From the NCBI GenBank assembly GCA_016788665.1, contig JAEUSF010000002.1:6006-70005 (forward strand): a DNA stretch of 64,000 nt, written 5' to 3'. The notes below the pieces were generated by a model. That model was not told the DNA's origin. It searched no databases and was given only the letters and a program-made list of their open reading frames with translations. Position numbers and translations under genes: made by a program. How positions within the stretch are numbered: position 1 is the first letter of the stretch; each line of letters starts with the position of its first letter. Positions 4,438 through 51,160 of the stretch are shown piece by piece. Source of the DNA: Candidatus Doudnabacteria bacterium. Lineage in GTDB: Bacteria; Patescibacteriota; Doudnabacteria; UBA920.

Positions 4438-4578
4438 AAAATTTATAAACTTACAAAATAATTCACTTAACTAAGGATCAAACTAAGTTAACTTACAAAC
4501 CCTTACCCAAGCCAACCATGTTATATTTTTTCCACTATTTTATGTTACAATAGTAACATTAACCCGCAAACTGAAAAG

Positions 4579-9276: not shown

Positions 9277-9933
9277 TCAATAATCTATCCCTCTCTGCGC
9301 CAATATGCCTTTGTAGTACGGATGCTTTATCATACACATCTCTGTAACCAAATCGCATTTGTCCAAAATTTTGGGAAACTTGTTATGGCCTGTTATAACT
9401 AAATGCTGAAGAGGTGCCTTCAAGTCTATTATATCTAAAATATCCCGCTCTTCAAGCAGCTTGCTTTCCAGGGCTGAAATTATTTCGTCTAAAATTACTA
9501 ACTGATACTTACCGCTGGCTATAACCTCCCGGGCGCGGCCTAAGCCTTCCAAGGCTGCCCTCACGTGAATTTCCTTTTCTTTTTTATCGCCCAAAATACC
9601 CACAAACCCCGCCCCCATCTGCTCATTATCTATACGACCAACTTTGGACGAAGTATTTAAGTTATTTAGAAAATCAATTTCAGAAGAAACCGGCCACTCG
9701 CCTTCTTTTATATTTTCCTTCGAAGCCCCCTTCGCTTTTACAAACTGCAAAATACACACGTTCATACCAGCCCCGGCCGCACGAATTGCCATACCCATAG
9801 CCGCTGTCGTCTTGCCTTTACCGGCCCCTAGGTAACAAATAACCAACCCCTTTGGCTCGTCACTAAAAGTTGTAGGCGTCTTAATTTTTTTAATGGGTGA
9901 TTTTTTGGTTTTTTTGGGCATATGGTTTTGCAA
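9277..9933 (-). CDS. Cob(I)alamin (corrinoid) adenosyltransferase, CobA/CobO/BtuR family
   Basis: GAGKGKTTAAMGMAIRAAGAGMNVCILQFVKA P-loop and a C-terminus ending GIDY as in Salmonella CobA. Confidence 0.8.
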   Translation of the reverse strand: MQNHMPKKTKKSPIKKIKTPTTFSDEPKGLVICYLGAGKGKTTAAMGMAIRAAGAGMNVCILQFVKAKGASKENIKEGEWPVSSEIDFLNNLNTSSKVGRIDNEQMGAGFVGILGDKKEKEIHVRAALEGLGRAREVIASGKYQLVILDEIISALESKLLEERDILDIIDLKAPLQHLVITGHNKFPKILDKCDLVTEMCMIKHPYYKGILAQRGIDY

Positions 9934-13679: not shown

Positions 13680-13810
13680 GCCTAATTTAAAAAATACTGA
13701 AAAAATCTAGAAATTCTTTTAAGCAACTAAAAGTTATCCCCAAACTTACCACAGTTTTAACCCCACAGCACCCATCGCTGGGTTAAAAAGCCTAATTTTG
13801 AGTAAAATAA

Positions 13811-13834
13811 AACCTTGTTTACAAACAAGGTTTT
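13811..13834. terminator. Rho-independent terminator (AACCTTGTTT aca AAACAAGGTT)
   Basis: 10-bp perfect stem, directly after the stop of the 13838-15142 gene, flanked by A/T runs. Confidence 0.7.
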
Positions 13835-13837
13835 ATT

Positions 13838-15142
13838 TTACTTCATAAAGTCTGCAATCTCTTCCTCAACCAGCGGGGCAGGAAGCCCATAAGCAAGGCT
13901 ATTTAAAAGCTTTATGCTATGAACATTATCGCTCCCCTCTGCTACAGGCGGCAAACTAACGCCCGAAAACGGATTGCTGGTCTTCCCGTCTATAAGAAGC
14001 TTTATGAAAAAATTGTATTTGGGTAAGTCAACAAAATCCTGTTTCTTCAAAGGATAAAACTCTTTGGAAAGACTCTCGGCATCTTCTGCTCCAATTTCAA
14101 AGGCCATTAAAGTCCCCACGTTACCCAATACCGCTTCCTGCATTTTTACAGGCAATTGAGCAAAATACTGGTTGGTTAAATGCACACCCAGCCCGTATTT
14201 TCTTGACTCAGAAAGCATACTAGCAAAAGCATCTGTAACCATATTCTGGAACTCGTCCACATACAAATAAAAGGGGTAACGCTTCTCGGCAGGCACAGCG
14301 CTTCTTTTCAATACCGCTGCCTGTAACTTAGCCACCAAAATTAACCCCAGCATCTGCGCATTCATGTCGCCCAACTTACCCTTTGACAAATCTACCAACA
14401 AAACTTTTTCACCGTCTAAAATTTTCTCAAAACTAAAAGACGACTTCCTTTGCCCAATTATATTGCGCATAAGTCGATTGTTCAAAAAATGTCCGAACTT
14501 GGAAGTGAAGTAGTTTAGCATTTCAGATTTATGGAAGTCTGAAGTACTAGCCATTTGTTTTTGCCAGAAATCCTGCACCATCGGATCTTTTACATACTGT
14601 CTTTTTTTCAATTCAAACCTTTTATCAATAAATAGCTTTGGAATCTCTAACAAGCTACCACCCTCCGGACCGGCCATGACCGTTAAAGCAGCTGACCTAA
14701 GCCAGTGCTCAAACTGAGGACCAATAACACCAGTTTTTTCTGGGTCAAAAATTTTATAAAATATTTCTATAACTTGTGCGACTAAAAAATCCCTCTCCCT
14801 TTCTTCGGAAGCCTCAAGCAAATTCAGCCCAAAAGGATTCTCGGCATCCGAGGGGTCAAAAAGTATAACATTTTCCATATGACTTTTGGGTATTCTTTTT
14901 AAAATCCACGAAATAGACTCTCCGTGCGGATCAATAAAACATACTCCCCGATGGTTTAAAATATCCTGCAAACACATATTCTGAAAAACAGTGGATTTAC
15001 CCACCCCGGTTTTACCCAGCATATACATATGCCGAAGCCTATCCTGATCTTTTAGCAAAATAGGAGTCTCGTTCCCTCTATATATATTTGTTCCAAGTTG
15101 GACGGTCATAAGAAAATTAAAAATGTAAAATGATGAATGCAA
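13838..15142 (-). CDS. P-loop ATPase of the VirD4/TraG/TraD (T4SS coupling protein) superfamily, lacking an N-terminal membrane anchor
   Basis: Walker A LGKTGVGKST followed by FIDPHGE, and a Walker B-like YLYVDEFQN; TraG-D_C-like layout. Confidence 0.45.
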   Translation of the reverse strand: MHSSFYIFNFLMTVQLGTNIYRGNETPILLKDQDRLRHMYMLGKTGVGKSTVFQNMCLQDILNHRGVCFIDPHGESISWILKRIPKSHMENVILFDPSDAENPFGLNLLEASEERERDFLVAQVIEIFYKIFDPEKTGVIGPQFEHWLRSAALTVMAGPEGGSLLEIPKLFIDKRFELKKRQYVKDPMVQDFWQKQMASTSDFHKSEMLNYFTSKFGHFLNNRLMRNIIGQRKSSFSFEKILDGEKVLLVDLSKGKLGDMNAQMLGLILVAKLQAAVLKRSAVPAEKRYPFYLYVDEFQNMVTDAFASMLSESRKYGLGVHLTNQYFAQLPVKMQEAVLGNVGTLMAFEIGAEDAESLSKEFYPLKKQDFVDLPKYNFFIKLLIDGKTSNPFSGVSLPPVAEGSDNVHSIKLLNSLAYGLPAPLVEEEIADFMK

Positions 15143-20410: not shown

Positions 20411-20454
20411 AAAAAACCCAAAATAAAACTCCCGGGGGCACAGCCGGGAGTTTT
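20411..20454 (-). terminator. Rho-independent terminator (CTCCCGGGGGCACAGCCGGGAG plus U-run)
   Basis: GC stem followed on the minus strand by TTTTATTTTGGGTTTTT; just after the stop of the 20482-21048 gene. Confidence 0.7.
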
Positions 20455-20481
20455 AAATTTATTTCGCAATTCTTATTTACA

Positions 20482-21048: not shown

Positions 21049-21236
21049 ACTTAATTATTGATTTGTTTTTTGTGGCTCTAAAAAATTTTGTTTTAAAGCC
21101 TTTTTTGTTTCAATTCGTACATTCTTTTCGCACACTTGCGAAATCGACCTTTAGAATATTACGTTACATACATTATAGCACAGCTACAGAAAAAAAGCAA
21201 ATGATCTGCAGGACACAAAATTAAAACACTACCGAT

Positions 21237-21290
21237 GCCTACAGAAATCTAATCATATTTAGATTACTATATTTCTGTAGGCATCACGTA
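21237..21290. terminator. Long hairpin (15-bp perfect inverted repeat GATGCCTACAGAAAT) downstream of ftsZ
   Basis: Direct reading; U-rich tract follows on the minus strand. Confidence 0.5.
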
Positions 21291-21317
21291 GTGTATTTTT
21301 TTGTAGTTCTCGTAGTA

Positions 21318-22511
21318 TTATTTCATTTTCTTTCGAATGAACGCAGGGATCTCCAATTCATCTTCAGAGTCACCACTTGTTGCACTTGCCGCGGGTTCAG
21401 TTGGCGGTGTTGCCTGTACCGGACGAGGGTTAAACATTGGCTTCCTTACTTCCAACGGAGGAGGGGGCAAATTTACCGGCGCTGTTTTTGCTTCAGGCAT
21501 AATATGCCGTTTTTCTTCCTGACTCAAAATTGCAATCGGTCTTTTACTTGACTCGTCAAACCCGGTAGCAATAACTGTAATCCTAATTTCATCGCCCATG
21601 TCTTCGTCTATAACGGTACCGAATTTAACTTTCGCATCTGGGTCTATACTCTTGGTTATAACTTTGGCAGCTTCGTCTATTTCAAACATACCCAAATTGG
21701 AACCACCTGTTATGTTAAACAGCACACCTTTAGCTCCGTCTATAGCAAGCTCGAGCAAAGGAGAATTTATGGCCAAGCGCGCGGCTTCCTGAGCTCTGTT
21801 CTCCCCGCTTGCTCTGCCAATTCCCATAAGAGCTGTACCAGCGTCTTGCATTATACTTCGCACGTCGGCAAAATCTGCATTTACAATTCCGTGTGTGGTA
21901 ATTAAATCTGAAATACCTGCGATACCCTGTCTCAATACCTCGTCGACTGTTTTAAAAGCATCTACCAAAGAAGTCTTTTTGTCTATTATCTGAAGTATGC
22001 GGTCGTTCTGAATAGAAATTATTGCATCTACTTTGTCCTTTAAGTTGTCATAGCCCACCTCTGCAACTTCCTTTCTCTTAGACCCTTCAAAAGTAAAAGG
22101 CTTGGTAACCACAGCTACGGTTAAAATTCCTTTATTCTTTGCGAGCTCGGCTACTATTGGAGACGCGCCAGTACCGGTTCCCCCGCCAAGTCCGCAGGTA
22201 ATAAAAACCATATCGGCATTGTCTATAATGTCTTCCAAATCTTCGACGCTTTCTTCTGCAGCCTGACGTCCTAATTCTGGGTTCATTCCGCTACCCAAAC
22301 CTTTAGTAGCGGTTTTACCAATATGAACCTTTTTGTCTGCCTGGTTGTTATGCAAAGCCTGAGAGTCTGTGTTTATAGCCACAAACTCTACGCCTTTTAT
22401 ACCAAGTTCGGACATGCGATTTACAGCATTGGTACCGGACCCGCCAATTCCTAAAACTTTAATTCTGGCAAAACTTTCAATTTTTGGTTTAACTTCCATT
22501 GTTTTTTTCAT
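21318..22511 (-). CDS. ftsZ: Cell division GTPase FtsZ
   Basis: [13 protein letters not shown]...[15 protein letters not shown] tubulin signature. Confidence 0.95.
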
Positions 22512-23070: not shown

Positions 23071-25176
23071 TTATAATTTTGCCTTATAGGCTTTTAAAAC
23101 TATCGCCAGGGCTTTTTCACCCGGCGAGCCCTTTTTGTAAACATCTATTAAACCTTCCAAAACTTCATTTTTTACTTCAAGATACCTAGGACTCGTCGCC
23201 GTATCCCCCAACGCTCTTTCTATAGACATCATTTGGAGCTTGAGTTTTTCTATAGTCGTACTGCCTTTTTTAAACTCTTTAAAACCTTTCACCATTTCTC
23301 TGGTAGCTACAATCATTACAAGTTCTTTGGCGTCCTTTTCTAACTGGTCATATTCCCTACCCCCTCCATAGTCCTCTCCTGCGTCAAAGTACTCTACTCC
23401 GGAACCGTCACTTTCCTCAAAAGCCGAATCTAAACTTTGCCAAGCTTTTAAAGCCTTTTCTAAAGAAGCATCCGGCTCGGTTAAAACTTTTAGGTTTTGC
23501 CTAAATTCCTTTCTAACTTCTGCTATAACCTGCCTGGTCTCTTCTGCTTCGTTAAATAAATACCTAGTTAAACTTTTGAGCTTTAGCTCCATAGCAGCTT
23601 TTTCCTCAGACGCATTTTGCAACTTTTCAAGCTTCCTTTCCAAGCCCGCTACTTTACCTAGGCTTTCAGAAAATACTGCCTCCGCCTTTTCCATTGCAAC
23701 TTTATGTCTTTGGTCAGGACTCTCTTTCCTAAAACTCTTCCATGCGCTTACAGGACCCTCGTTCCTAAAACTCTTCCATGCTCTTGCCAGCACGTTTTTA
23801 CCAGAAAACTCTTTGGACTGCCTGTATAGCCTTGCGCCCTTCTGAACACTGTTATTTCTATACTCAGTTTCTATTCTATTTCCCACTTTACTTACATTTT
23901 TATACAAGTCCTGAAGACTCCCAAAACCAATGTCGTCCCTATTCGCCAAATCGTTTAAATCTTTAATGCGGCCAATATCGGCCGGGTTCCTTAACACTGT
24001 TGAAATTTCCGCCTTTAGTCTATATGCGTCCTCCAGAGAATTCCAAACGCTTCGGGGACCACTAACTCGAGCAACACCACTAAACCCCCTAAGCGACAAT
24101 TTGCGCACGTCGTCCAATTTTTGATTCAGCTTAGTAACCTCCTCACCACTTTCAGGGTCGGCATAATCAACCTTACTTAACTGTTCGCTAATACCTCTTC
24201 TGTACTCACCCAGCAAATCTTCGGACATGCCTCCGGCCGCATCAATCGCCTCGTCAAAATTTTTCATTATTCCCGCCGCAGCTTCTAAACTGAATTTTTT
24301 TCCGGTATCTAGCTTAGCGACCGCTTCGACTTTATTTTTTGCTGCCTGCAAATAGTTCTGCAGTTCATCTGTGTTCATTCCTGCTTCTGCAAACACCTCG
24401 GCTCTTTTTTCCACCACTTCCAAATACCGCCCATATTGTTCGGCATTTTCCTGTGCCGTTTTTACAGACTCCAAACCAGCTTTTTGCATTTCTGCTTCTA
24501 CTATTTTAAATTCGGCAGAAAATTGCCCCAATGCCTTTTCACCCCTCACTATGGCATTGAAGGCATTATTTTCGGCTTCCAGAGTAGTCTTTCTTTCTTC
24601 CGCGCTTCCTAAACTTTCTTTTGAGTCTATAAGTTTACTTTCCAAACTATCTTCAGGCTCCATGGCTGAAAGCTCTTCCTGCTTAGCTTTTATTGCCAAA
24701 GGCAGCTTTTCATAATCTTCCAAATCCTGATTTATTATTTTAAGCGCCTCTACTCCTTCGTTTTGGACTCTTTCCATTAAGCCCTGCTCCAAACCTTTTA
24801 GCTGTTCAGGCTTTAGCTTTACGCTTGTGTCCTTTAAAATTTTTGCTTGTAAAATTTCCCCAAGCTTTTTACTTGCTTTAGGTATTTCTTTAAAAGCCTC
24901 AAAGCGTTCCTTTACTAATTTTTCATCTGCCTCGTCCATATCTAAAACCTCGGCATCTGGAAAACCAGCCAAAAACTCCGAAAAGCCAGGCGTATTTAGC
25001 GCGGTCTCCATAGAGAAAGCCCCGCTCTCTACAGCAGCGTGCTCAGTTTCGGAAGAATGATTTGTTTTTGTTTCAGCTTTATGGCCATGACCCTTAGACT
25101 GCCTAAACGAAGTTAAGTCTTGGCCAAACTTTGAACCGGTAACCGGCTCGCCATTTATTGCAGTTATATTTACCAT
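23071..25176 (-). CDS. Large coiled-coil protein, hypothetical; contains an internal tandem duplication (AWKSFRNEGPVS/AWKSFRKESP)
   Basis: 701-aa ORF with heptad-rich K/E/L composition; stop abuts the start of the next gene. Confidence 0.5.
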   Translation of the reverse strand: MVNITAINGEPVTGSKFGQDLTSFRQSKGHGHKAETKTNHSSETEHAAVESGAFSMETALNTPGFSEFLAGFPDAEVLDMDEADEKLVKERFEAFKEIPKASKKLGEILQAKILKDTSVKLKPEQLKGLEQGLMERVQNEGVEALKIINQDLEDYEKLPLAIKAKQEELSAMEPEDSLESKLIDSKESLGSAEERKTTLEAENNAFNAIVRGEKALGQFSAEFKIVEAEMQKAGLESVKTAQENAEQYGRYLEVVEKRAEVFAEAGMNTDELQNYLQAAKNKVEAVAKLDTGKKFSLEAAAGIMKNFDEAIDAAGGMSEDLLGEYRRGISEQLSKVDYADPESGEEVTKLNQKLDDVRKLSLRGFSGVARVSGPRSVWNSLEDAYRLKAEISTVLRNPADIGRIKDLNDLANRDDIGFGSLQDLYKNVSKVGNRIETEYRNNSVQKGARLYRQSKEFSGKNVLARAWKSFRNEGPVSAWKSFRKESPDQRHKVAMEKAEAVFSESLGKVAGLERKLEKLQNASEEKAAMELKLKSLTRYLFNEAEETRQVIAEVRKEFRQNLKVLTEPDASLEKALKAWQSLDSAFEESDGSGVEYFDAGEDYGGGREYDQLEKDAKELVMIVATREMVKGFKEFKKGSTTIEKLKLQMMSIERALGDTATSPRYLEVKNEVLEGLIDVYKKGSPGEKALAIVLKAYKAKL

Positions 25177-25278
25177 GTATTTATAATAGTATAAATTTAT
25201 TTTAAATTCAAACCAAATCTAAACAGCTTTTATATAACAAATTAATATGGTATAATTTATACAAATATAAACACATTT

Positions 25279-26799
25279 ATGAAACAAAAAATATATAGTT
25301 CTGTACTAACCTTACTGTTCTTTTTTAATATCTTTGGCATCCTAGGCCAACCAGCAGCGGCACAAACTTTTTGCCAATTTAGCATAACAAGCTTTGAGGC
25401 TCAAAACACTTCGGCCACCGACTATAGCACAGTAAACAAAAACAGCTCGGTAAAAGTTTTTGTTAAAAGCAGCTTTGACCAAGTTTGTGTTAAACCATAC
25501 ACAGTCGTTTACACCTTCCAACTAAAAACCAAGTCTGGCTACACAACAGTACAAACAAAAGAATTTACCCCTCCCATAAATACTTCAACCCATGACTTTA
25601 ATTTCATTTACGACCTAAGTTCTTTTTCGGGCTGGAATAACTTATCGGATAATGCGAAACTTGAATACAGCCTTACTGCTTCTGGAAAGTCAGGAGCTGT
25701 ATCCAGACCCTTTGCAAATACTAATACCTGGGGCAAATTTTTAAATGTTACCGGATCTAGCACCGGTGGGACAACTCCAAGCGGTACCGGCAATCTTTCT
25801 ATGCAGCTTGCTGTAGACAAAGCCGAAGCATTAACCGGCTCTACTTTATATGTAGATATTAAAGTGAACGGAACTGTTACAGACCCGCTAGCGATACAAA
25901 AAAAATATAAAATATTAACCTATGTAAACACAAAATGGGTTGGACAGTTCAGGGACCTTACCTCCACACAACTGACCCAATCAAAAACCCAAGAAATAGT
26001 AGTGAATACAGAAAACGGATTTAAAGCTGGTGCAAATACCATACGGGTAGAAGCATACAACCAAGATACGAACACTCTAATTGCTCAAGCAAGTTTAAAT
26101 ATTTCTATGCCAGGAGCAAGCTCTAACTCTTCTCCTACTGTTAGTGTATCCCCAACAAAATCTTCTTATGCATTAGGTGAGACTATTACTTTGCAGTTTC
26201 AAAATCTTCCCAGTGGAAGAGTTGGAGTAATTACAATAAACAATGCAGTAGACAAAACTCTGCCCCAACAAAATAACTTCCCTATCGAACTTTCGACAAC
26301 TAACGGCTTTAACGATAAAAGCAATAACAACATTTTAATTAAAATTTCCGACAGCTCAGGTGCGCCGGTAACTTTAGACAAAAGTTCGCTAACTATTCCT
26401 ATTGGCATACAAGGTGCGCAGACCAATTCATCAAGTACACCAGGTACAACCGGAGGAATTCCAACTCTTAGTGAAACTTTAGTTAACCCTCTGCCCTGGG
26501 ACGGACTTTTAGAAACTTTCTTAGGTATAACCAAAGGCTTGTTAGCCGGCTTAGCTATTTGGGCAGTTATAGCAATTATAATAGCTGGCTTTAGAATGGT
26601 TCTCGCAGCTGGCAACGAAGAAGCTATAGCTACTGCCAAAAGGTCTATAACTTGGGCTATTTTAGGTTTAGTTGTAGCCATACTTTCTTTTAGCATAGTG
26701 GCCATAGTCCAAAACTTACTCAACGTAAAAATAGAGCAGTACGACCCGCGTCCAGTTACTGGTTACGAACAAACTCAAGAACCAAAAAACTTAAGTTAA
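25279..26799 (+). CDS. Secreted Ser/Thr-rich surface protein with a C-terminal TrbC/VirB2-pilin-like two-helix hydrophobic hairpin
   Basis: Signal peptide MKQKIYSSVLTLLFFFNIFGILGQPAAAQ; C-terminus GLLAGLAIWAVIAIIIAGFRMVLAAGNEEAIATAKRSITWAILGLVVAILSF. Confidence 0.5.
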   Translation: MKQKIYSSVLTLLFFFNIFGILGQPAAAQTFCQFSITSFEAQNTSATDYSTVNKNSSVKVFVKSSFDQVCVKPYTVVYTFQLKTKSGYTTVQTKEFTPPINTSTHDFNFIYDLSSFSGWNNLSDNAKLEYSLTASGKSGAVSRPFANTNTWGKFLNVTGSSTGGTTPSGTGNLSMQLAVDKAEALTGSTLYVDIKVNGTVTDPLAIQKKYKILTYVNTKWVGQFRDLTSTQLTQSKTQEIVVNTENGFKAGANTIRVEAYNQDTNTLIAQASLNISMPGASSNSSPTVSVSPTKSSYALGETITLQFQNLPSGRVGVITINNAVDKTLPQQNNFPIELSTTNGFNDKSNNNILIKISDSSGAPVTLDKSSLTIPIGIQGAQTNSSSTPGTTGGIPTLSETLVNPLPWDGLLETFLGITKGLLAGLAIWAVIAIIIAGFRMVLAAGNEEAIATAKRSITWAILGLVVAILSFSIVAIVQNLLNVKIEQYDPRPVTGYEQTQEPKNLS

Positions 26800-26803
26800 A
26801 AAT

Positions 26804-26880
26804 ACCATTCAAAAAACCATGTTCTACCCTCACCTAACCTCTCCCTGGAAAGGGAGAGGAATAAGAGAGAACATGGTTTT
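26804..26880. repeat. Compound hairpin: 21-bp perfect inverted repeat CCATTCAAAAAACCATGTTCT enclosing inner hairpin CTCTCCCTggaaaGGGAGAG
   Basis: Direct reading; sits exactly at the low-GC/high-GC junction. Confidence 0.7.
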
Positions 26881-26987
26881 TTGAATGGGGGCAAAGCGAA
26901 GTCTGGTTAGACCGCTTTGCCCGAGTTAAGGTGCGCGCGCATTGCTCGTGGGTGCACGAGCCTGCGCCGCCTTCATAGTCAAGTACG

Positions 26988-27656
26988 TCACGGGAGCTTA
27001 CCCTTGGGCCCAAAGGCGAGCCCGTGAGCGTTGCCTTCGGGATAGAACAACACATCGCCCCGAAGCCCATACTCCCCCCAAGCCTTTTTATTTGCGATGT
27101 TGTGTCCGTCCGCAAACATAGGCTTAAGGTTTGGGTCATGCCCTTTCAGGTAGACCCTTTTACCGTCTGGTCCTACGAGGTAAAGCTTTACCTCGTAGTC
27201 GTGCAGCGAGTTCCGGTACGACCGAGGCAGTACCAGAAGAATGGGCTTGTTCGGCTCGCATTTGTCGAGCTGTGTGAGATACCGAATTTCCCCCTCTATC
27301 TGCTCCGCCGGGCACACGTCCCGCAGCGCCAGCTTGGGATCGCCAAACTTAGCTTTGTCGGCCTCCAGCCTCAGGGTTTCTGCCGCGTAGGTTTCGACGG
27401 CCTTTTGCGAGTTGCCTTTTAAGATTTCACTTTTCACACTCTTGGTCCGCTCGGTAAAGCGATCCTGCAGAGCGCTGTTCACGTCCCGCTGGCGGTTTTG
27501 ATGCGCCGGCACCATAGGCACCTGCGAACGAAAATCCCTCCAGACCGTATAGAGACAGTAACCTATTAGCAATGCAATGATAGTTCCACCGATGACAGGC
27601 AACTTATCCTCAAGCCTATCCCAAAACCCTTTCTTATGAACCACTTCCGTCGACAT
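26988..27656 (-). CDS. Island protein E: single-pass membrane protein with C-terminal globular domain, unknown function
   Basis: Start ATG overlaps the stop of the upstream gene (TAATG); TM helix LPVIGGTIIALLIGYCLYTVW; high-GC codon usage. Confidence 0.5.
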   Translation of the reverse strand: MSTEVVHKKGFWDRLEDKLPVIGGTIIALLIGYCLYTVWRDFRSQVPMVPAHQNRQRDVNSALQDRFTERTKSVKSEILKGNSQKAVETYAAETLRLEADKAKFGDPKLALRDVCPAEQIEGEIRYLTQLDKCEPNKPILLVLPRSYRNSLHDYEVKLYLVGPDGKRVYLKGHDPNLKPMFADGHNIANKKAWGEYGLRGDVLFYPEGNAHGLAFGPKGKLP

Positions 27657-28633
27657 TAGTGTCCTCCTCCATGTCCGTGCGAAGTCTTTTTCCCGAGCCG
27701 TCCCAGCATTAGGATGACTAAAATTGCAATTACCGCATACCCGATGTTCAACGGGTCGTCCCAGCTGATGTACCAATCGGGCAACGACAAGCTGAAGTTC
27801 CAGTTTTGGCTAATCATGCCTCGGATCGAGTAAAACCCGACCGCAGCCATGCTGGCCACAATCAGAACCTTGGCGAACCAGTTGTCCGCCCAAGATAGCG
27901 CGACCAAGCTCACAACGACTGTAAGCAGTAGCCACACTATGTGTGGCATCCCAAGTGGTGCCGGTAAAGGCCCTTTCGGCGCTGGTGGCACCTCAGGTCC
28001 TTTTACCATAGTCATCAAGTCTGCGTGAACCCCGTCGGCGGTTTCAAGCCGCGGACGAAGTTTTGCGAGCTCGGTGCGGAGCTGTTTTTCGGTTAGCCTT
28101 CCTGCAGCGTACTGCTGGTAAAGCTTTAACGTTTCCGCTCCGACCTTGTCACCGAACTGCTCTGCAAGGAGTTCGTTGGTAACAAACAGCTTCTTCCGAG
28201 CCGGCAGGTTCGCCGGTTCGGCTTGTGCCGCGGCATTGAGCAATGCCTTTTCTTTGGCGTTGCTTGCCGCGCTTCCAAGCGCGTCGCTCTGTTGGTACAG
28301 AGCAGTAACTATGGCCTTGTCCACTTCGAGCCACAGCTGTGGCACGAGCGAGACAAGCCAGAATAACATAACCTTGGTTGCCCACGACGCCCACGCGTCG
28401 TGGTTGTTACTCAAGACTCGCGCCAGCATGGAAAGCGCGAGCGCGAGCGGCAAACCCTGCTGGACGGCAACAACCGCCCAAGCGCTCTGCGTGTGTCCTA
28501 CGAAGTAGGCACACGCGACCAGCATGAGCAGCAGCACGAGCCACCACTCTTTCAGAATCTGCATAGGGTTAGCACCGGTCCCGGTGGGAGCCGGCGCGGG
28601 GGTCGTTGCGGTCGTGTGAGCGTGTTCGCTCAT
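27656..28633 (-). CDS. Island protein D: polytopic membrane protein, unknown function
   Basis: At least six hydrophobic helices; ends GHGGGH; GC-rich. Confidence 0.5.
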   Translation of the reverse strand: MSEHAHTTATTPAPAPTGTGANPMQILKEWWLVLLLMLVACAYFVGHTQSAWAVVAVQQGLPLALALSMLARVLSNNHDAWASWATKVMLFWLVSLVPQLWLEVDKAIVTALYQQSDALGSAASNAKEKALLNAAAQAEPANLPARKKLFVTNELLAEQFGDKVGAETLKLYQQYAAGRLTEKQLRTELAKLRPRLETADGVHADLMTMVKGPEVPPAPKGPLPAPLGMPHIVWLLLTVVVSLVALSWADNWFAKVLIVASMAAVGFYSIRGMISQNWNFSLSLPDWYISWDDPLNIGYAVIAILVILMLGRLGKKTSHGHGGGH

Positions 28634-28642
28634 GCAAGCCTC

Positions 28643-30145
28643 CTAAAAAAGTGGTTTCAAAAACGGGAAGTACCGCGTTAACACATGGCCGACCAGGTTC
28701 ATAGCTACCTCAACCATGATGTCCTTCTCAATAAACTCCCGCCACGATTCCCGGCCAAGCGGCGCAGGCCTCGCGTGTGGCTTGTGTTCCGCGTGTTCTT
28801 CAACTGGGGGTTTCTCTCCTACGTTTTCACCGTTTTTCTTACGGTATACGACGTAAACTCCTTCATATTTTCGCCGTTCAGCGACAAGCTCTACGGCTTC
28901 CCGCTTGTGGGCGAACCTTCCCTTTGCGGCCGCACTGGCTTGCCCTACCTCATCGGCAAGACAAACCGGAACCCAAAAAATCCAGAACAATATCCAGTAA
29001 AGGAGCCAGAAGCCCACGCGGGCTAAAGGCCGTCCTTCATGTATGGCGCGAAATGGGATAACAATAGCCACCGCTTCGGAAAGCAGCGACGGTTTACCCG
29101 TCTTTTTAGCTTCGGGTTTTAGAGCCGGCAAGCTGTCCGGTTCCTCCGAAAAGGACCCGAGTTGGCTTTCCAGTGCCTTGCGGCGAGCATCCTGCTTTTC
29201 GCGAGGCGATGCCGAATTCTCGACTACCGTCTCTTCCTGCGTGCCGCGAGGGTTAAAGAGCAAGCTCAGCAACCCATACGACATGTAGAGAGAACTCCAA
29301 ACCCCGAGCCAGAAAATCAGGCCTAGGAGTTTGTTGTTGTTCCGCCGCCACTTTTCACCACACCAAGCATAAAAACCCTGCTCTGCATGGTGACCGTGAT
29401 GGCCAGCATGCCCTGCGTGTCCACCATGCTCATGAGCATGGCCATGGAGAACAGCCGCTACGTTCAGGTCGAGCATGTCTGCCCGGTGAACGTATACCGT
29501 TTCCTCGCCGTTAACCTGGAACCTGGAACTAAAAGTTCCTTGTTCCGAGGTTGCAATTCGGGTGCCGCTAAAAACAACGTCGGCCTTACAGCCAACACCG
29601 TCTTCAAACGTCTGCCCTTCCAGGCTCCATGCGTCTTCGGTCCCCGACACGGGGACAAAGCGAGTGTAGAGCGCGTAAACCGGGTCGGAGGACTTTGCAG
29701 CCTTAGGCTTTTCAGCCGTTGGCGGCACTTGTCCGGCCGCAGAACCTGCCGGTTGTTCTTCCGGCAAATCTGCAACGAACTCATCGGCGCCGAGCTTGAC
29801 GCCAACTTTTTTTAGCGCCTCTTTTTTATAGGCGCTTAAGTCAATGCCCGCTACCACCCCTTCTCCGTCTACCACTGAGAGAGTATAAACCTCTCCCCCA
29901 GTCTTGGACGGGTCTGGAATGGAATAAGCGCAAGGATCCGATGCCGGACCAAAGCACAAGGGGAACTCATGCGTCTGTCCCTGTCCGTTCAGGTAATACT
30001 TCACCCGAACGATTAGGGAAGACATTGTTCCCGAAACAAACAACCTTAGGTCCTTTTTTGGACCCTGATGCTGTTGCTGCTGCGGGTTTCCGCCTCCTCC
30101 TCCACCACCACCACCTGTGCGGTTGCGGTTTTGATTATTTCTCAT
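28643..30145 (-). CDS. Island protein C: membrane protein with poly-Gly/Gln N-terminus and a His-rich metal-binding-like segment (HGHAHEHGGHAGHAGHHGHH)
   Basis: Internal Met with GGAGGA SD 9 nt upstream; TM helices after the His-rich segment. Confidence 0.5.
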   Translation of the reverse strand: MRNNQNRNRTGGGGGGGGGNPQQQQHQGPKKDLRLFVSGTMSSLIVRVKYYLNGQGQTHEFPLCFGPASDPCAYSIPDPSKTGGEVYTLSVVDGEGVVAGIDLSAYKKEALKKVGVKLGADEFVADLPEEQPAGSAAGQVPPTAEKPKAAKSSDPVYALYTRFVPVSGTEDAWSLEGQTFEDGVGCKADVVFSGTRIATSEQGTFSSRFQVNGEETVYVHRADMLDLNVAAVLHGHAHEHGGHAGHAGHHGHHAEQGFYAWCGEKWRRNNNKLLGLIFWLGVWSSLYMSYGLLSLLFNPRGTQEETVVENSASPREKQDARRKALESQLGSFSEEPDSLPALKPEAKKTGKPSLLSEAVAIVIPFRAIHEGRPLARVGFWLLYWILFWIFWVPVCLADEVGQASAAAKGRFAHKREAVELVAERRKYEGVYVVYRKKNGENVGEKPPVEEHAEHKPHARPAPLGRESWREFIEKDIMVEVAMNLVGHVLTRYFPFLKPLF

Positions 30146-30563
30146 ACTTGACTTTCCTCCTACGGAAATGTCAAAGATCTCTTCTTGAGCGGTAAGTAAA
30201 CCGGTCTCAAGGATTCCACAAAAGTGGAATATCACCTTACGGTGAGTAAAACCTTGTAAAAGTGGTGCCCAATGTAAAACCCCGCTTTTTAGGGCGGGGC
30301 AAAACATTAGAATTTACAAGGTTTTGCCCACCACAAGCAAAAACATAAAAATATTCAATTATTTAATTTTTTAAACTAGCTAATTGCTGTAAATAAAATA
30401 ATTTTACTTACACCACCCAACTAATTCATGTATTGATTTTTCACTTACTACTTACTACGAGCTACCAGCTACTAGCTAGAAAATGGGGGGAAAGTTTATA
30501 AGCTCTCCCCCGCCTTTGTTATGTGTCTCCCGCCCTGTCCGTAGACAGTTTGGGAGAAAAGCG

Positions 30564-32165
30564 TTACTTCTTCGTGACAGGCAGATTCCAGGTTTGGATC
30601 TCTGCCTGGACTTCCTGCGCCTTGGTGGCCGCGTCGGGGTTGACGAGCGCCGTCTTTGGCGGCGTGTCTTTCCCAAGCAACCTCTTCTTACCCGGCTCCA
30701 CCACAAATGTGGTGTTACCGATTCCGGCAACAGCTTCAGCGAGCTTGACGGTTTCACCCGCCAGCTTGCCAAGACCCTCGCCGACAGGCTTAACCTCTTC
30801 GCGAACAATCTCCTTCACCCGGTCTTCCGACACGCCTTCCGACATGCCGTCAACCTTAGCCTGGAGAGCGTCAACCTTCTTTTGAGCCGCCTCGGCCTTC
30901 GCCTCGAGGAGCTTGTAACGCGTGTCTTCGAAGACCGCTCCCTTCACTCGCTTTTCGCGAGCCTGTTCAATCGCCGCAATAGCTTCCTTGCTCGTCCCCG
31001 CTTTCGAGGACGAAAGGAGCTGGATGAGTTTATTGTAATCCAGACCAAGCTCCTGGGCTTGACCCAACAGATACGACCTGAACAACTTCTCTTCGCCGGC
31101 GTTTCCGCCCACCATCTGCTTAATTGTGACCGCCATGCGGTCACGACTAATCCATTCGCCTGCAGAAACAATTTCCAAGGAAGCTTCCACTTCCTTGCCG
31201 TCGATTTTAACGGTGGGGTAATCACGCTTGGCGCCCGAAGACGCCTTAATCTTGAAACTAAATCCGCCGGGAACCGTTTTGACATCGGTAACAGCAATAT
31301 TGCTGTCCACGACCTCAATCGTCTTCCCGACAACACCTCGGCATACCATGGCGATTTCAGTTCCATCATCCGGAACTGCGTTGTTACGATACTCAGGGTC
31401 ACCGCAAGTGACCTTCGGTCCGGCAGCACGAACATCCGCCACCGCTCCAAACAGGAGCAGCAGAGCTACTGCGTGAGACGCCATGCCCTTTGCGGCACCC
31501 TTGCCCTTGCTCTTAATGAGCGAAAGGCCCATGAAGACAACAAAAATAATAAACGCTCCGATAGCTCCATACTTCAACAAAGAAAGCACGGCGCTCACCT
31601 GCTCAGACAAGTCCTTGACCTGCTTTTGCAGATCCGCGACCTGCTCCTTCCCAGCAGGACCTGCAAAGAGGGCCCGGATCGCATCTGCCCTGGTCTCTAG
31701 GCTTTCCAGCCGAGAGTCCAAGTCGTCCAGGTTGGTCTTCTTCTCAACCACATGGACTGTTATCTCACTCTCCCCCTCAACTTTAGGCTCGGACGAGTCC
31801 GAAACCTTGACCTTGAGGGTTATATCCCCGGCCTTGTCCGGCTCCACCACCAACTTATACTGGTCGGCGTGGTCCCCGACCGCCTCGAGTTTTGCCCCGA
31901 CGGAATCGGGGTCAACCGACGCGGACAATGTTGCCGTGTAGGGGGCCTTACCCCCCTTGATCGCAACGGTGACCGACGCCGGGCCACGGCTGGCCTCGAG
32001 TGTCCCGAACTCGGGGACGCTGACGGTGAGACCACCAACCGCCGGAGCAGCGGGCGCCTCCTTCGAAGCGCCAGCAGCCTTACGGCTACGCTGGGCAAAC
32101 ATTTTGTCAGTCGAGCCCGCGAGAAACGCGAGCGTTAGAAGCAGAGAAAAAACAAAACGGGACAT
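30564..32165 (-). CDS. Island protein B: large secreted/membrane protein, unknown function
   Basis: AAGGAG SD then MSRFVFSLLLTLAFLAGS signal peptide; internal TM helix; Ala/Val/Lys-rich. Confidence 0.5.
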   Translation of the reverse strand: MSRFVFSLLLTLAFLAGSTDKMFAQRSRKAAGASKEAPAAPAVGGLTVSVPEFGTLEASRGPASVTVAIKGGKAPYTATLSASVDPDSVGAKLEAVGDHADQYKLVVEPDKAGDITLKVKVSDSSEPKVEGESEITVHVVEKKTNLDDLDSRLESLETRADAIRALFAGPAGKEQVADLQKQVKDLSEQVSAVLSLLKYGAIGAFIIFVVFMGLSLIKSKGKGAAKGMASHAVALLLLFGAVADVRAAGPKVTCGDPEYRNNAVPDDGTEIAMVCRGVVGKTIEVVDSNIAVTDVKTVPGGFSFKIKASSGAKRDYPTVKIDGKEVEASLEIVSAGEWISRDRMAVTIKQMVGGNAGEEKLFRSYLLGQAQELGLDYNKLIQLLSSSKAGTSKEAIAAIEQAREKRVKGAVFEDTRYKLLEAKAEAAQKKVDALQAKVDGMSEGVSEDRVKEIVREEVKPVGEGLGKLAGETVKLAEAVAGIGNTTFVVEPGKKRLLGKDTPPKTALVNPDAATKAQEVQAEIQTWNLPVTKK

Positions 32166-32732
32166 GGACCACTCCTTGTGAACTTGAACAGAATTCAGAG
32201 GGGACGCCTCTGGCTTTGGGACAAATGGCGTCCTCTGCAAAAAAGTTTCAAGCACGCAATTTTACAGCCGACACTTAGTCAAATGTAAAGTGCGCTAAAA
32301 TAAAAACCTTTTTGCAAAGGACCACCACCTTCCACCTAACATCCGCAAAATCTGCAGCTATCTGCGTATCTGCGAATTGTAACGCTTTTAATCCTCCTAA
32401 TAAATTTATTTAATGTACAAGCCCGAATAGAAATTCCAGGCTCATATCTTTAGCTAAAACAAGCCAATTAGCTAAAAATATGAACCAAGCTATATATAGT
32501 ATTAAATTGACATATAATTATACTAGATTTGACCTAAAAAGTCAATATTTAGTCTGTTTATTGCTCATATTTAAAGCAAAAAAAATTTTCACTCCCTATT
32601 TTATAGCCGAAAACAGGCCATGGATGCATATACACCCATGGCCAAAATGCCTTAAAAGGCTAGTTGTACAAGGAGAGTGGCTTTTGCCTTTTTTGAGTAG
32701 AAAGGCATGTTCGCACGCAGATACTAAAATCT

Positions 32733-33590
32733 TTAGGTTTCGGGAGGGGGTTCTTCTGGAGATACTACGTTTCTTGTGGGCTTGTTTGCCCTAACGGTCT
32801 CCTCCCCACTATACCCGCTTGGAGGCTGTTTGCGCCGCGCCTTTTTATACCAAGGCCCAAACTCTTCTTCACCGTACCCGGTCTCGTTAAACTGCCTATA
32901 CTTGTAAGTCCACTGAAGCCTGCCGCTCCGCCAAAGCCAAACTATCATTCCAATCGTGCTCAGCAAGAGCAAAATTCCCAAAAGCCAAACGGTATTTCCA
33001 CGGCTCCACCGCACATTTTCAAACGGCTTCTTCCAGAGAGGCGGACGCTTTGGGGCAATAGGTTTTTTTACCACACCCGAACCCGCCAAAGACTCCAGCC
33101 GGGAAATTTCGGTCCTCTGGGCTATAACCTCTTTGCCCAAAGTACCTAGCTGTGCTCTTAAAGAAGCAACTTCTGCTTCCAAAGCATCAACCTTCCGCTC
33201 AAGCCCCCGCATTTTAAGCCCGCCGTCTTCTTCCGGCTTAACCAAGCCCGCCGTTCTGCCTCTTATGTTTCTTCCAGAAGCAGAAGAATGGCGCGCAAAG
33301 GCACCAAGCTCCTTCAAAAGCAGTTTGGCGGTTAAGCTCTGGCTTGGCTTTGCGTCTTTGGGCAAAAGAAAAAACTTGTTATGCAGTTTGCGGTAAAGTT
33401 TCGGGTCAAGCACACGCCCGTTTTCATCCTGCAAGGCATAAAGCAAATAAACGCTCTTGCCCGCCCGATTTAAATCCGCCATGGGTCCGTACTTGCTTGC
33501 TGCTATCCGCTCGACGTTGTGAGCAAAAACCTGAAACACGCACACCAAAAGTCCCAACACTGCACACCGCACTGTCCTTGTAACTAACAC
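32733..33590 (-). CDS. Island protein A: signal-peptide protein with coiled-coil and C-proximal TM helix (GTG start)
   Basis: AGGAGG SD 9 nt before GTG; MLVTRTVRCAVLGLLVCVFQVFA signal peptide. Confidence 0.5.
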   Translation of the reverse strand: MLVTRTVRCAVLGLLVCVFQVFAHNVERIAASKYGPMADLNRAGKSVYLLYALQDENGRVLDPKLYRKLHNKFFLLPKDAKPSQSLTAKLLLKELGAFARHSSASGRNIRGRTAGLVKPEEDGGLKMRGLERKVDALEAEVASLRAQLGTLGKEVIAQRTEISRLESLAGSGVVKKPIAPKRPPLWKKPFENVRWSRGNTVWLLGILLLLSTIGMIVWLWRSGRLQWTYKYRQFNETGYGEEEFGPWYKKARRKQPPSGYSGEETVRANKPTRNVVSPEEPPPET

Positions 33591-33724: not shown

Positions 33725-33750
33725 ATTAAAACCACTCTATTTTTAGAGTG
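33725..33750 (-). terminator. Rho-independent terminator after ftsA (ACCACTCTA ttttt TAGAGTGGT)
   Basis: 9-bp perfect stem followed on the minus strand by TTTAATTTATATT. Confidence 0.65.
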
Positions 33751-33767
33751 GTCTTAAAGAAAAAACA

Positions 33768-35015
33768 TTATGGCAATAAAGATTTAAGCCAACGCTTGGC
33801 TTTTTCTAGTGCGGGATTTTTCAAAAAAGCACCCAAGGAATTTTCAAGTCTTCCACTCGAAACAGTTCCATACTTTTGGCCCCACAAAACTAACCCCACC
33901 GCTGTAGCAAAAGCAGGTTCGCTAACCCTGTCTATAACCGTTTCTACGTTTTGACTAACGCCCAAAGCCGAAGGAAGGCGCAAATGCTTTTTGGCAAAGT
34001 CTACCACCCCGGGCAAATGGCTACCCCCGCCCGTTAAAACTATACCCGCTGGCAATTTCCCGTCTCTATTTATGCGTTTTAATTCCGCAATAACACGGTC
34101 GAAAATTTCTTCCAGCCGGGCTTCAATTATTTCCACAACCAAACCTCTTAAAGTGGTCTGCTGTTCAGACTGGTCTATTTGGTTTAAGAAGATTTCTTCG
34201 TTTTTATCTATAGCCTTTATATCGCAGTGCCCATACAACAGCTTTACCTTTTCTGCCGTTTCAATACTTGTCCTAAGCCCTATGGCAATGTCGTTGGTCA
34301 TATGCTGGCTGCCAATTGGGATAATTGAAGTATGCATTAAATCACCCTCTTCGTATACAGAAACTGCCGTAGTACCCGCGCCCAAATCTACCACACAGAC
34401 CCCCAAGTCTTTTTGTCTTTTACTTAAAACGCTTTCGGAAGCCGCTAAAACGCCCAGAACCAGCTCATTTATTTCCAAGCCCGCCTGCATAACGCAACGG
34501 CTTAAGTTTTTTATAAATGGGCTACCCGCCTGCACAATTATACTTTCGACTTCTAAACGAATACCACTCATACCAGCCGGATCTTTTATACCACTCTGGC
34601 CGTCTAGAGTAAAACTTTTTGGAAAAACGTGTAAAACTTCTCGGTTAGAAGGTATAGATATTGCCTGGCTGGCATCTACCACCCTAACAATATCTGCTTC
34701 GGTAATTTCGCCATCAGCTCTAGAAACTGCTATGACCCCATGGGAATTCTGGGACGTAACATGACTGCCTGAAACAGAAATATTTGCCGAATCAACTGGC
34801 ACACCTGTCATTCTCTCCACCCGTTCCAAAGCAGTAGAAATACAAGAAACCGCCTCCTCAATGTCCACCACCACACCTTTCCTCAGACCAGCCGAAGGAA
34901 CCTCGGCCGCACCTATAATTTGCACACTCAAACCGTCAGGCTTCACTTTGCCCTGAACAGCCCTAATATGACTAGTGCCTATGTCGAGACCTGTAATGTA
35001 TGATTCTTTTGCCAT
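33768..35015 (-). CDS. ftsA: Cell division protein FtsA
   Basis: Actin-like ATPase, ITGLDIGTSHIRAV...; 415 aa. Confidence 0.85.
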   Translation of the reverse strand: MAKESYITGLDIGTSHIRAVQGKVKPDGLSVQIIGAAEVPSAGLRKGVVVDIEEAVSCISTALERVERMTGVPVDSANISVSGSHVTSQNSHGVIAVSRADGEITEADIVRVVDASQAISIPSNREVLHVFPKSFTLDGQSGIKDPAGMSGIRLEVESIIVQAGSPFIKNLSRCVMQAGLEINELVLGVLAASESVLSKRQKDLGVCVVDLGAGTTAVSVYEEGDLMHTSIIPIGSQHMTNDIAIGLRTSIETAEKVKLLYGHCDIKAIDKNEEIFLNQIDQSEQQTTLRGLVVEIIEARLEEIFDRVIAELKRINRDGKLPAGIVLTGGGSHLPGVVDFAKKHLRLPSALGVSQNVETVIDRVSEPAFATAVGLVLWGQKYGTVSSGRLENSLGAFLKNPALEKAKRWLKSLLP

Positions 35016-35954: not shown

Positions 35955-36062
35955 AATATGCTTACTGGAGTTAGGAATTTGGAAGTAGGAATTAAAAACA
36001 CCTTCATAATATGAAGGTGTTTAGTACGAACTCCTAACTCCTAACTCCTAATTCCAACTTCT
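35955..36062. repeat. Compound element: perfect hairpin AACACCTTCAtaatatGAAGGTGTT flanked by (GGAGTTA)n/(AACTCCT)x3 heptad arrays in inverted orientation
   Basis: Direct reading. Confidence 0.65.
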
Positions 36063-44035: not shown

Positions 44036-45268
44036 ATGAATAAATACCATAAAATAATTTTAGCAATTTTATTTACCCTTGCCGTGCTTTTAGGCTTGGC
44101 TCAAAGGGAGCAAGACCCTTACATAAAAGATTCCGCCCTGAACTTTAAATCCGATTCCGAAACAGGCTCTGCGCTTTACAAATATATTAAATCCGCTGAA
44201 GACTTAGCTCAAAAAAAACAACCTTCCATAAAAAACGACCTTGATTTCTTGGCCGTTGGCGACATCATGCTTTCACGGAACGTTGCCGGAACTATAAAAA
44301 AATCCGGTGACCCGCTTCTCCCTTTTTCAGGCATGAAAGAAATTTTGAACTCCACTGACTTTAATTTTGGCAATTTGGAGTCTCCAATCTCAGGCAGCAA
44401 CGCTTTTAACAACACGGGTTCTTTGGTCTTTAACGCACCCACAACTTATACCACGGGTTTATATAAATATAATTTTCAAGTTTTAAGCCTGGCAAACAAC
44501 CATGCTCTGGACCAAGGCGAAAAAGGTTTGTTTCATACTTTAGATTTTTTAAAAGAAAAAGGAGTTAAGACAGCAGGAGCAGGAAAAAATTTAGAAGCAG
44601 CTTGGCAGCCAGCTGTTGTTGAAAAAAACGGGATTAAAATTTGTTTTGTTGCAGCTTCTTATTCTTCGGTTAATGACAACGGAAAGGCGGTTAATGATTT
44701 TGTCGCCCGAATTCAAGACATTAAAAGTCTTAAATCCTCTATTGTAAATATTAAATCTAATTGCGACTTTGTTGTTGCAACCATGCATGGGGGCACAGAA
44801 TACATTACAAAACCTAACCAAACCCAAATTGATTTTGCACACGCCGCAATAGACGCTGGAGCAGACATGGTTATAGGCCACCACCCTCACTGGATACAAA
44901 CCATAGAACGCTATTGTCCCAATAGCGCAACCATATCGGACCCCCCATCTCCCTTTAGGGGAGAAGGGGCGGGGGATGAGGGTAACAATCCATGCCCCAC
45001 CCCAAAACTAATTTTCTACTCACTTGGCAACTTTATTTTTGACCAAATGTGGAGCCAAGAAACACGCGAAGGCCTGGCGTTAAAAATTAAGGTGTCAAAA
45101 ATAAAAAATCAAAATGAACTCCAAGGACCCAAGGTTGCAGCTGTTTTAGAGTCGGTAGAATTAATACCGGTCATAATAGATAATTACTCAACCCCGAGAC
45201 CTGCAAATGCGGAAGAAGCAAAAAAAGTCTTAGCCAAAATTGGCGAAACAAAAAATATATTAAAATAA
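44036..45268 (+). CDS. CapA/PgsA-type metallophosphatase family protein with an in-frame low-complexity insertion
   Basis: LAVGDIML..., HGGTEY, GHHPHW motifs; about 25 aa of GC-rich inserted segment at 44925-45000. Confidence 0.6.
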   Translation: MNKYHKIILAILFTLAVLLGLAQREQDPYIKDSALNFKSDSETGSALYKYIKSAEDLAQKKQPSIKNDLDFLAVGDIMLSRNVAGTIKKSGDPLLPFSGMKEILNSTDFNFGNLESPISGSNAFNNTGSLVFNAPTTYTTGLYKYNFQVLSLANNHALDQGEKGLFHTLDFLKEKGVKTAGAGKNLEAAWQPAVVEKNGIKICFVAASYSSVNDNGKAVNDFVARIQDIKSLKSSIVNIKSNCDFVVATMHGGTEYITKPNQTQIDFAHAAIDAGADMVIGHHPHWIQTIERYCPNSATISDPPSPFRGEGAGDEGNNPCPTPKLIFYSLGNFIFDQMWSQETREGLALKIKVSKIKNQNELQGPKVAAVLESVELIPVIIDNYSTPRPANAEEAKKVLAKIGETKNILK

Positions 45269-48040: not shown

Positions 48041-48078
48041 TAAAGATGGGAGTCTTCTGGAAGACTCCCATCTTTTTT
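48041..48078 (+). terminator. Rho-independent terminator after topA
   Basis: AAAGATGGGAGTCTTC tgg AAGACTCCCATCTTT followed by TTTTTTT. Confidence 0.7.
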
Positions 48079-49678: not shown

Positions 49679-49802
49679 GTTTGTCTTCTAAAAAATTCCT
49701 ATATCTCATATTATAGCACGTTAAAAGGCTACCAAATTACGAAAATTATCGAACTACAATATTTTAATTTTTGTATATTCGCGCACTTCGTAATTTTGTA
49801 GC

Positions 49803-51062: not shown

Positions 51063-51160
51063 AAAATTTCAAATACCAAATTACAAATTTCAAATAAATA
51101 TTAAACTCTCTAATTTCCAATTTCTAAGTAATGCATTATATTTGAAATTTGAAATTATTA
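51063..51160. repeat. Heptad-period degenerate tandem repeats (AAATTTC AAATACC AAATTAC AAATTTC ...)
   Basis: About 14 consecutive heptads between the two permease genes. Confidence 0.65.

Follow-up and report, generated by a model that had tools for sequence, protein, structure and literature searches.

Terminators and inverted repeats between convergent genes

Bidirectional intrinsic (Rho-independent) terminators combine an A-tract, a GC-containing stem-loop and a T-tract, with both transcripts reading a hairpin and a U-run, and are located a few nucleotides past the stop codon between convergent genes; a stronger constraint has been reported for the terminators common to convergent genes in Bacillus cereus (PMC5381666). 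The element described here, a compound hairpin of 84 nt (26805-26888), shares these features. It is found in a 64-kb stretch of DNA from a Candidatus Doudnabacteria metagenome-assembled genome (MAG; contig JAEUSF010000002.1), referred to throughout as the window, and lies between a gene for a secreted pilin-domain protein on the plus strand and a GC-rich cluster of genes on the minus strand. The element is considered likely to be a bidirectional intrinsic terminator for the convergent pilin-domain gene (+) and the GC-rich membrane-protein operon (-); it most likely serves an ordinary function and is extreme only in its form, a difference of degree and not of kind. If so, little changes; a lineage of the Candidate Phyla Radiation (CPR) would be documented as using very long, sometimes nested, symmetric intrinsic terminators.

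Architecture of the compound hairpin

The arms of the element, CCATTCAAAAAACCATGTTCT, form a perfect 21-bp inverted repeat and occur exactly twice in the window, at 26805-26825 on the plus strand and 26868-26888 on the minus strand; no further copy was found within the 64 kb when three mismatches were tolerated, and dinucleotide shuffles likewise gave zero matches. Both sides share an architecture of an outer 6 bp, an A6 or T6 tract and a 9-bp core stem. The left arm runs from CCATTC (26805-26810) through A6 (26811-26816) to the core stem CCATGTTCT (26817-26825); the right arm runs from the core stem AGAACATGG (26868-26876) through T6 (26877-26882), which mirrors the A6, to GAATGG (26883-26888). 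Between them lies a spacer, or ‘loop’, of 42 nt (26826-26867) containing a perfect inner hairpin of 9 bp, CCTCTCCCT-GGAA-AGGGAGAGG (26838-26859; -16.9 kcal/mol); this spacer is found in the reversed orientation in the orthologous contig L032. Minus-strand transcripts have a further U-rich tail, UAUUUUUAAC, after the complete hairpin; the tail (given as UAUUUUUA, 26797-26804, minus strand) overlaps the stop codon of the pilin gene on the plus strand.

An earlier reading of the region, made from the sequence only, had described a compound hairpin with perfect 21-bp arms and a nested hairpin, and this anatomy holds; its coordinates (26804-26880), on the other hand, omit the last 8 nt of the right arm, and its inner hairpin, which is indeed perfect, was written one pair too short. 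It had also placed the structure 5 nt past the stop of the convergent secreted-protein gene, which agrees with a TAA at 26797-26799 and a left arm that begins at 26805.

Folding of the compound element far exceeds chance. As RNA, the 93-nt element has a predicted energy of -50.9 kcal/mol on the plus strand (z = -10.2) and -56.1 kcal/mol on the minus strand (z = -10.4), and as single-stranded DNA -32.3 kcal/mol (z = -11.2). The core hairpin with the tracts excluded (26817-26876) folds at -30.7 (+) and -36.5 (-) kcal/mol, with U6 directly after it on either strand; the z-scores of the core and full hairpins all lie between -5.9 and -10.4. When the 130 nt downstream of each of 52 open reading frames (ORFs) were folded, the stretch 3′ of the pilin gene had the lowest energy of all, the median being -27.4 kcal/mol.

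Predicted termination on both strands

As the A6 and T6 tracts lie inside the arms, the RNA of either strand would end as a stem followed by UUUUUU. On either strand the nascent RNA would first form the core hairpin CCAUGUUCU-(42 nt)-AGAACAUGG, stabilized by the nested 9-bp GGAA/UUCC hairpin and followed by UUUUUU; RNA polymerase would pause at the U tract, the hairpin would invade the RNA:DNA hybrid, and the transcript would be released. The released 3′ end could then pair up along the A/U tracts and the outer 6 bp, giving a helix of about 38 bp that would also shield both mRNAs from 3′ exonucleases. The 42-nt interior may be the elaborated loop of an ancestral simple terminator, and a second hairpin located immediately beyond the right arm (26889-26922) might act as a back-up or stabilizer for the minus-strand operon.

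The features expected of a bidirectional terminator are present: a stem-loop and U tract on both strands, a mirrored A-tract, a site between convergent stop codons and an equivalent hairpin in relatives. The sequence-only reading had offered three options for the structure; the anatomy, the convergent position and like hairpins in four relatives support the bidirectional terminator, while the attachment site and the miniature inverted-repeat element are unsupported. Several points weigh against termination as the function. The geometry is atypical, with a core hairpin of 60 nt and a branched or bulged interior, and the element was not flagged by a simple terminator scan, since the loops allowed in that scan were limited to 3-8 nt. 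The plus strand has no U tract 3′ of the complete hairpin, so termination there must occur at the internal U6, before the outer 12 bp pair. The perfect 21-bp repeat and the outer pairs past the A/T tracts exceed the needs of a terminator; termination is furthermore predicted from the sequence of an uncultured organism.

The orthologous site in related genomes

The 21-mer arm was scanned against 596 Gb of species-representative genomes and gave five loci, of which only L001 (full contig L032) is orthologous; L002-L005 were rejected as arm copies, being single-arm chance matches inside unrelated sequence. The sequence-only reading had proposed such a search, naming a sequence without copies elsewhere as one half of what would count against its more unusual options; this half is borne out, as the arm recurs only at the orthologous locus of one relative. 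L032 is a MAG labelled as Saccharibacteria with an FtsZ 96% identical to that of the window at the protein level and about 85% at the DNA level. Across 26460-26990 the window and L032 are 84% identical, with the last 300 nt of the pilin gene at 90%. The arms of L032, at 9456-9476 (21/21) and 9542-9562 (20/21), match at 41/42 positions overall against about 88-90% in their surroundings, which fits the constraint reported for convergent-gene terminators (PMC5381666).

Further syntenic contigs were obtained through homologues of the pilin protein (L020, L022, L021, L023 and L031). At the same site after the orthologous pilin gene, the first four, all of them related CPR contigs, carry a hairpin of A-tract, stem and T-tract with unrelated stems: TTTAAAAAGCTCATC-7-GATGAGCTTTTTAAA in L020 and TTTAAAACACCCGTTC-4-GAACGGGTGTTTTAAA in L022, both of which also have the second hairpin, and AAATACAAATTCAAAA(C/T)CCCCTATCAATTGATAGGGG in L021 and L023, contigs that break off within the first hairpin. 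In these two the left flank is conserved (AAATAC.AATTCAAAA), and the flanking tract ATTCAAAA is recognizable; the more distant L031 has other genes at the site and no hairpin. Hairpins with unrelated stems at the same site form the pattern expected of a terminator whose stem turns over freely; such turnover would hardly be expected of a mobile element or of a recombination site recognized by its sequence. The hairpin 3′ of ftsZ in the window turns over as well, L032 having a different, shorter one.

A search with the 325-aa protein of the GC-rich cluster added L033, a 1.8-kb Logan contig that ends inside the second hairpin, short of the compound hairpin. Three independent Logan contigs stop within the junction hairpins, namely L021 (11156), L023 (1693) and L033 (1789); the junction palindromes probably break short-read assemblies, limiting the relatives available for comparison. 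In L022, at about 4367-4480, the left half of the terminator, CAAATTTAAAACACCC, is duplicated (16-bp) and flanks an insert of ~98 nt with a hairpin of its own, ATCCCGGAAATTTTA...TAAAATTATCCGGGAT.

The second hairpin and the adjoining segment

The second hairpin, GGGCAAAGCG-N14-CGCTTTGCCC, directly abuts the right arm with zero gap (26889-26922; -20.4 kcal/mol on either strand); a further hairpin had been noticed in the sequence-only reading and is present, at this position and not at 26892-26925. The 141 nt spanning both hairpins fold as RNA at -72.9 (+) and -77.6 (-) kcal/mol. The second hairpin is 89% identical to that of L032 and has homologues in three relatives (L032, AGGCAAAGC..GCTTTGCC; L020, GGCGAAGG..CCTTCGCC; L022, GGCGAAGGAAG..CTTTCCTTCGCC), pairing being retained in L020 and L022 via a compensatory change from an A-T to a G-C pair; this change was read by eye, the automatic four-sequence alignment (window 26884-27000, minus strand) being too poor there for RNAalifold scoring.

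Three nucleotides before the second hairpin on the minus strand ends a segment (26926-26976) with a possible 16-codon ORF, MKAAQARAPTSNARAP and a stop, or a structured 3′ untranslated region (UTR); it contains a small hairpin, CTCGTG-GGTG-CACGAG, at 26945-26960 (plus-strand coordinates). The window and L032 are identical at 61/68 positions (88%) across 26923-26990, whereas the neighboring 222-aa protein is only 30% identical. In-frame counterparts of the tiny ORF, all ending in Pro-stop, are seen in L032 and L033 (MKATQPRAPTSNARAP), in L020 (MKTHLPRQPARSVRSP) and in L022 (31 aa, ending ...PKQSRDP). The segment may represent a putative tiny Pro-stop ORF or an RNA element.

An unlikely alternative, though more probable than the other rivals, is a structured 3′-UTR element or a 3′-derived small RNA (for example an RNase III substrate or a 3′-UTR small RNA), with termination secondary; it is compatible with the terminator. 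The module would consist of the ~38-bp duplex, the second hairpin and the conserved segment 26926-26990, for processing or stability. Identity to L032 is 84% over 26460-26990 (pilin end 90%, second hairpin 89%, tiny-ORF segment 88%) beside an adjacent protein at 30%; the structure of the second hairpin survives sequence change in L020 and L022, and G-U pairs make the minus-strand RNA more stable than that of the plus strand (-56.1 vs -50.9 kcal/mol). However, L020, L022 and L021 have unrelated sequence in place of the stem and interior of the first hairpin, which a sequence-specific RNA would not tolerate, and the spacer occurs in either orientation, so its sequence on one strand is not conserved. 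No Rfam family matched at its gathering threshold; permissive matches were only to long hairpins of the plant miRNA precursor type, at 21-30 bits versus cut-offs of 90-230.

Inversion of the spacer

The spacer of the compound hairpin aligns with that of L032 with a score of 44 when flipped and 24.5 in direct orientation, and the 7-mers adjacent to the arms are swapped and reverse-complemented (ACCCTCA...ATAAGAG in the window, CTCTTAT...TGAGGGT in L032). The L032 spacer is 65 nt long; an extra 24-nt insert brings a perfect hairpin, CCCCGGAC-TTG-GTCCGGGG. The opposite orientations are seen between two species only, the window and L032, both of them assembled MAGs. The final k-mers of usual assemblers are longer than the 21-bp repeat, and for this reason an assembly artefact is unlikely.

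The inversion looks like a passive hairpin-loop inversion, not a dedicated switch; passive recombination or replication template switching between the arms could have flipped the spacer, and would also favor continued identity of the arms. Kelchner and Wendel reportedly described small inversions associated with hairpins in the non-coding DNA of plastids in 1996. Hairpin-loop inversions between inverted repeats have been documented in plastid DNA as small events that proceed without a dedicated enzyme (PMC12371153). The flipped loop would be a tidy bacterial case of a process described mainly for plastid DNA, and is a caution for alignment-based analysis of intergenic regions.

There is a slim chance that the 42-65-nt interior flips back and forth in living populations, by hairpin-mediated recombination or an unrecognized enzyme; the locus would then be a reversible ‘flip-flop terminator’ in which orientation tunes read-through or 3′-end stability between the pilin gene and the fast-evolving GC-rich operon, and only in that case would it constitute a new regulatory device. 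Very improbable is a programmed invertible DNA switch (inverton), in which a recombinase would flip the segment and in doing so change whether transcription between the pilin gene and the GC-rich operon stops or continues. At 21 bp, the perfect inverted repeats have the typical inverton length, and two related genomes with arms 41/42 identical show opposite spacer orientations, but the ORFs scanned from 13.8 to 51 kb contain no recombinase, invertase or integrase domain, and no promoter-like site lies within 26805-26888. Known recombinase-driven invertible segments are, to our knowledge, considerably longer than the 42 nt seen here, which counts against an inverton. The two orientations are similar in energy (-50.9 / -56.1 kcal/mol in the window, -57.0 / -60.3 kcal/mol in L032) and differ only between species, so that a single historical event suffices; such events arise in plastid hairpin loops without dedicated enzymes (PMC12371153).

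Gene context and the GC-rich cluster

The convergent junction at the element is one of few in the window. Upstream lies the gene (25279-26799, plus strand) for a secreted protein of 506 aa whose C-terminal part is a T4SS_pilin domain (Pfam PF18895, E = 6.5e-07, above the curated cut-off); this protein is identical to the recorded JNN11_01245 of a Candidatus Doudnabacteria MAG, the proteins of the locus at NCBI being JNN11_01245/01250/01255. Downstream, an ORF of 222 aa with an N-terminal transmembrane segment (26988-27656, minus strand) is the last gene of the GC-rich minus-strand cluster, and its stop (26988) is 99 nt from the element. A homologue search with the 222-aa protein returned only the protein itself; orthologues with 24-30% identity occupy the same position in L032, L022 and L020.

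From left to right, the order is a 701-aa gene (-), the 506-aa pilin-domain gene (+), the hairpins and five minus-strand ORFs of 222, 325, 554, 563 and 285 aa, all five within DNA of 50-60% GC at about 26.9-33.6 kb. These five ORFs look like membrane or secreted proteins from their sequences; among seven ORFs at 23071-33590, which include them, the sole Pfam match at or above the curated cut-off was T4SS_pilin, and PHROG matches were zero. The element is located between ftsZ (21318-22511, minus strand) and ftsA (33768-35015, minus strand), with hisS, signal peptidase, engA, pth, dprA and topA as housekeeping neighbors. The GC content is about 40% in the window at large and leftward of the junction, and 52-60% from about 26900 to 33590; the composition step at about 26900 confirms the earlier placement of the hairpin at the junction of a GC island.

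The cluster is syntenic in L032, L022 and L020, at the same locus between ftsA and ftsZ; its proteins are 30%, 74%, 68% and 61% identical to those of L032, against 96% for FtsZ. Given its presence at this position in three other species, the cluster does not represent a recent insertion delimited by the compound hairpin; judging by these comparisons, it appears to be old, fast-evolving and odd in composition. If the element is indeed a terminator, an abrupt change in GC content may simply fall where an ordinary operon ends, without marking the boundary of a mobile element.

A miniature inverted-repeat element or its remnant is very doubtful, and so is an attachment site or border of a GC-rich island gained by horizontal transfer. 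The 84-bp unit has the look of terminal inverted repeats, with 21-bp perfect arms, it stands exactly at the GC step (about 40% to about 55%), and the 98-nt insert between 16-bp duplications beside the equivalent terminator of L022 indicates that small insertions do occur there. Against this, the element is single-copy in the 64-kb window and the genome collection gave one locus, the ortholog. A 19-mer scan of metagenome contigs gave 13 single-arm matches, the best of which (L017, L006 and L009) were extended without a partner arm or flanking similarity; viral contigs gave zero matches for the arm or the inner hairpin, and phage and plasmid collections zero matches for the arm (distant mode). 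These searches covered the window and genome, metagenome, viral, phage and plasmid collections; the source genome outside the window could still hold copies. The flanks ...TAAAAATA and GGGCAAAG... (AAATA / GGGCA) show no target-site duplication, and single copy and missing duplication together speak against the miniature inverted-repeat remnant that the sequence-only reading had entertained.

The attachment or recombination site it had also suggested fares no better. The far end of the island has no matching direct repeat, repeats within 26000-33500 being at chance level (<=17 nt at >=88% identity); no tRNA is nearby, the closest lying at 38751 and 55518; and no integrase or recombinase domain was found among the ORFs scanned. 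The sequence-only reading had proposed a check for island-less relatives whose empty site holds one arm; in L032, L022 and L020 alike the cluster occupies this locus, where it has diverged along with them. Nor does the sequence of the element resemble that of the other long hairpins in the window. An integron attC site was rejected on its motifs: the spacer has one GTTAGGT (GTTRRRY-like) on the minus strand, that strand has no matching RYYYAAC, and no integrase is present.

A palindrome or cruciform bound by protein at the DNA level, for instance an operator, or a site used in replication or segregation between ftsA and ftsZ, is extremely improbable, since its perfect dyad symmetry, strong predicted single-stranded DNA folding (-32.3 kcal/mol, z = -11.2) and arms slightly better conserved than their surroundings are set against an arm sequence that is not kept in L020, L022 and L021 (where the A/T-tract hairpin architecture alone persists), no second copy in the window, and a location at gene 3′ ends, not at a promoter.

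Other hairpins and structured RNAs in the window

Long palindromic hairpins with A/U tracts, some of them nested, are common at 3′ ends in the window, as shown by the folding of the 130 nt downstream of the 52 ORFs. The hairpin after ftsZ has arms at 21234-21256 and 21263-21285 followed by UUUUAAUUUU (region 21227-21294); that after a HIT-family gene (about 35960-36060) has an inner terminator within a long outer stem of repeated GGAGTTA units, and that after topA (48042-48075) is accompanied by a second hairpin. Perfect palindromes are located at 13801-13842 (20 bp, 3′ of a 434-aa TraG/TrwB-like gene), at 20424-20455, and at 55477-55523 (23 bp, overlapping the CCA end of tRNA-Lys); a terminator-type hairpin at a gene 3′ end lies at 33726-33757.

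Two further inverted repeats have spacers of about 42 nt and sit in AT-rich intergenic DNA between genes for FtsX/MacB-type permeases. The arms of the first (49718-49812) are 21 nt long, at 90%, with a folding energy of -25.9 / -29.9 kcal/mol; the second (51060-51160) has 18-nt arms at 94% and folds weakly, and its region has a 95-nt, 75% match to L031 6173-6265. The sequence-only reading had pointed to a similar hairpin in capA (44949-44966); this is only a 6-bp stem, TCTCCC-TTTAG-GGGAGA, inside the PGA_cap coding region, and the resemblance is regarded as due to chance. The pattern TCTCCCT-N(2-8)-AGGGAGA is found in the window only at 26840-26857, and the capA stem does not match it.

Nested hairpins are also present within the GC-rich cluster. 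H2 (30230-30342, minus strand) precedes the probable genuine start codon of the 554-aa gene, an ATG near 30142 with GGAGGAAAG before it, and is 100% identical between the window and L032 (about 12866-12975), where the flanking coding DNA is at 77-84%. In L022 (about 9430-9535), H2 shows the compensatory change of CCTTGTAAA/TTTACAAGG to CCTCGTAAA/TTTACGAGG together with G-U-compatible changes, and its inner hairpin is swapped for a different GC-rich one. H2 is more stable on the minus (sense) strand (-49.8 vs -40.5 kcal/mol) and matches no Rfam family; it looks like a conserved leader, attenuator or regulatory RNA. H3 (32225-32327, minus strand) is likewise nested and strongly strand-asymmetric (-47.6 on the minus strand vs -31.8 kcal/mol on the plus strand), with no meaningful Rfam match; a near-consensus promoter-like site (minus 32545-32517, TTGACT-17-TATAAT) lies upstream of H3, and the signal-peptide start of the 563-aa gene follows downstream. 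A hairpin family uniting the compound element (H1, 26800-26892) with H2 and H3 was rejected, local alignment scores being no better than those of shuffles.

Comparison with known systems

The element resembles miniature inverted-repeat transposable elements (MITEs) and palindromes of the repetitive extragenic palindromic (REP) type in being a short palindromic intergenic unit at gene 3′ ends; unlike these, it is single-copy, lacks a target-site duplication and differs from the other hairpins of the window. Invertons, such as fimS and the invertible promoters of Bacteroides, likewise have inverted repeats of ~20 bp flanking a segment seen both ways; here, in contrast, the segment is 42-65 nt, there is no promoter and no nearby recombinase gene, and the orientations vary between species only. 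Closer to the spacer are the hairpin inversions of plastids, in which a short segment (reported as 4-50 bp) between hairpin-forming inverted repeats is found in both orientations in related genomes (PMC12371153), as are the 42 nt and 65 nt here; the present case differs in belonging to a bacterial (CPR) chromosome, in lying inside a convergent-gene terminator and in being known from two genomes.

The closest match to the whole element is the bidirectional intrinsic terminator. This unit is much longer than typical members, at 84 nt and with about 38 bp formed on the minus strand. Where those have a loop of 3-8 nt, it carries a structured interior of 42 nt, and six extra perfect pairs lie outside the A/T tracts; its function is deduced from the DNA. 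With the terminators shared by convergent genes in Bacillus cereus it has in common stems that are better conserved than their surroundings (PMC5381666).

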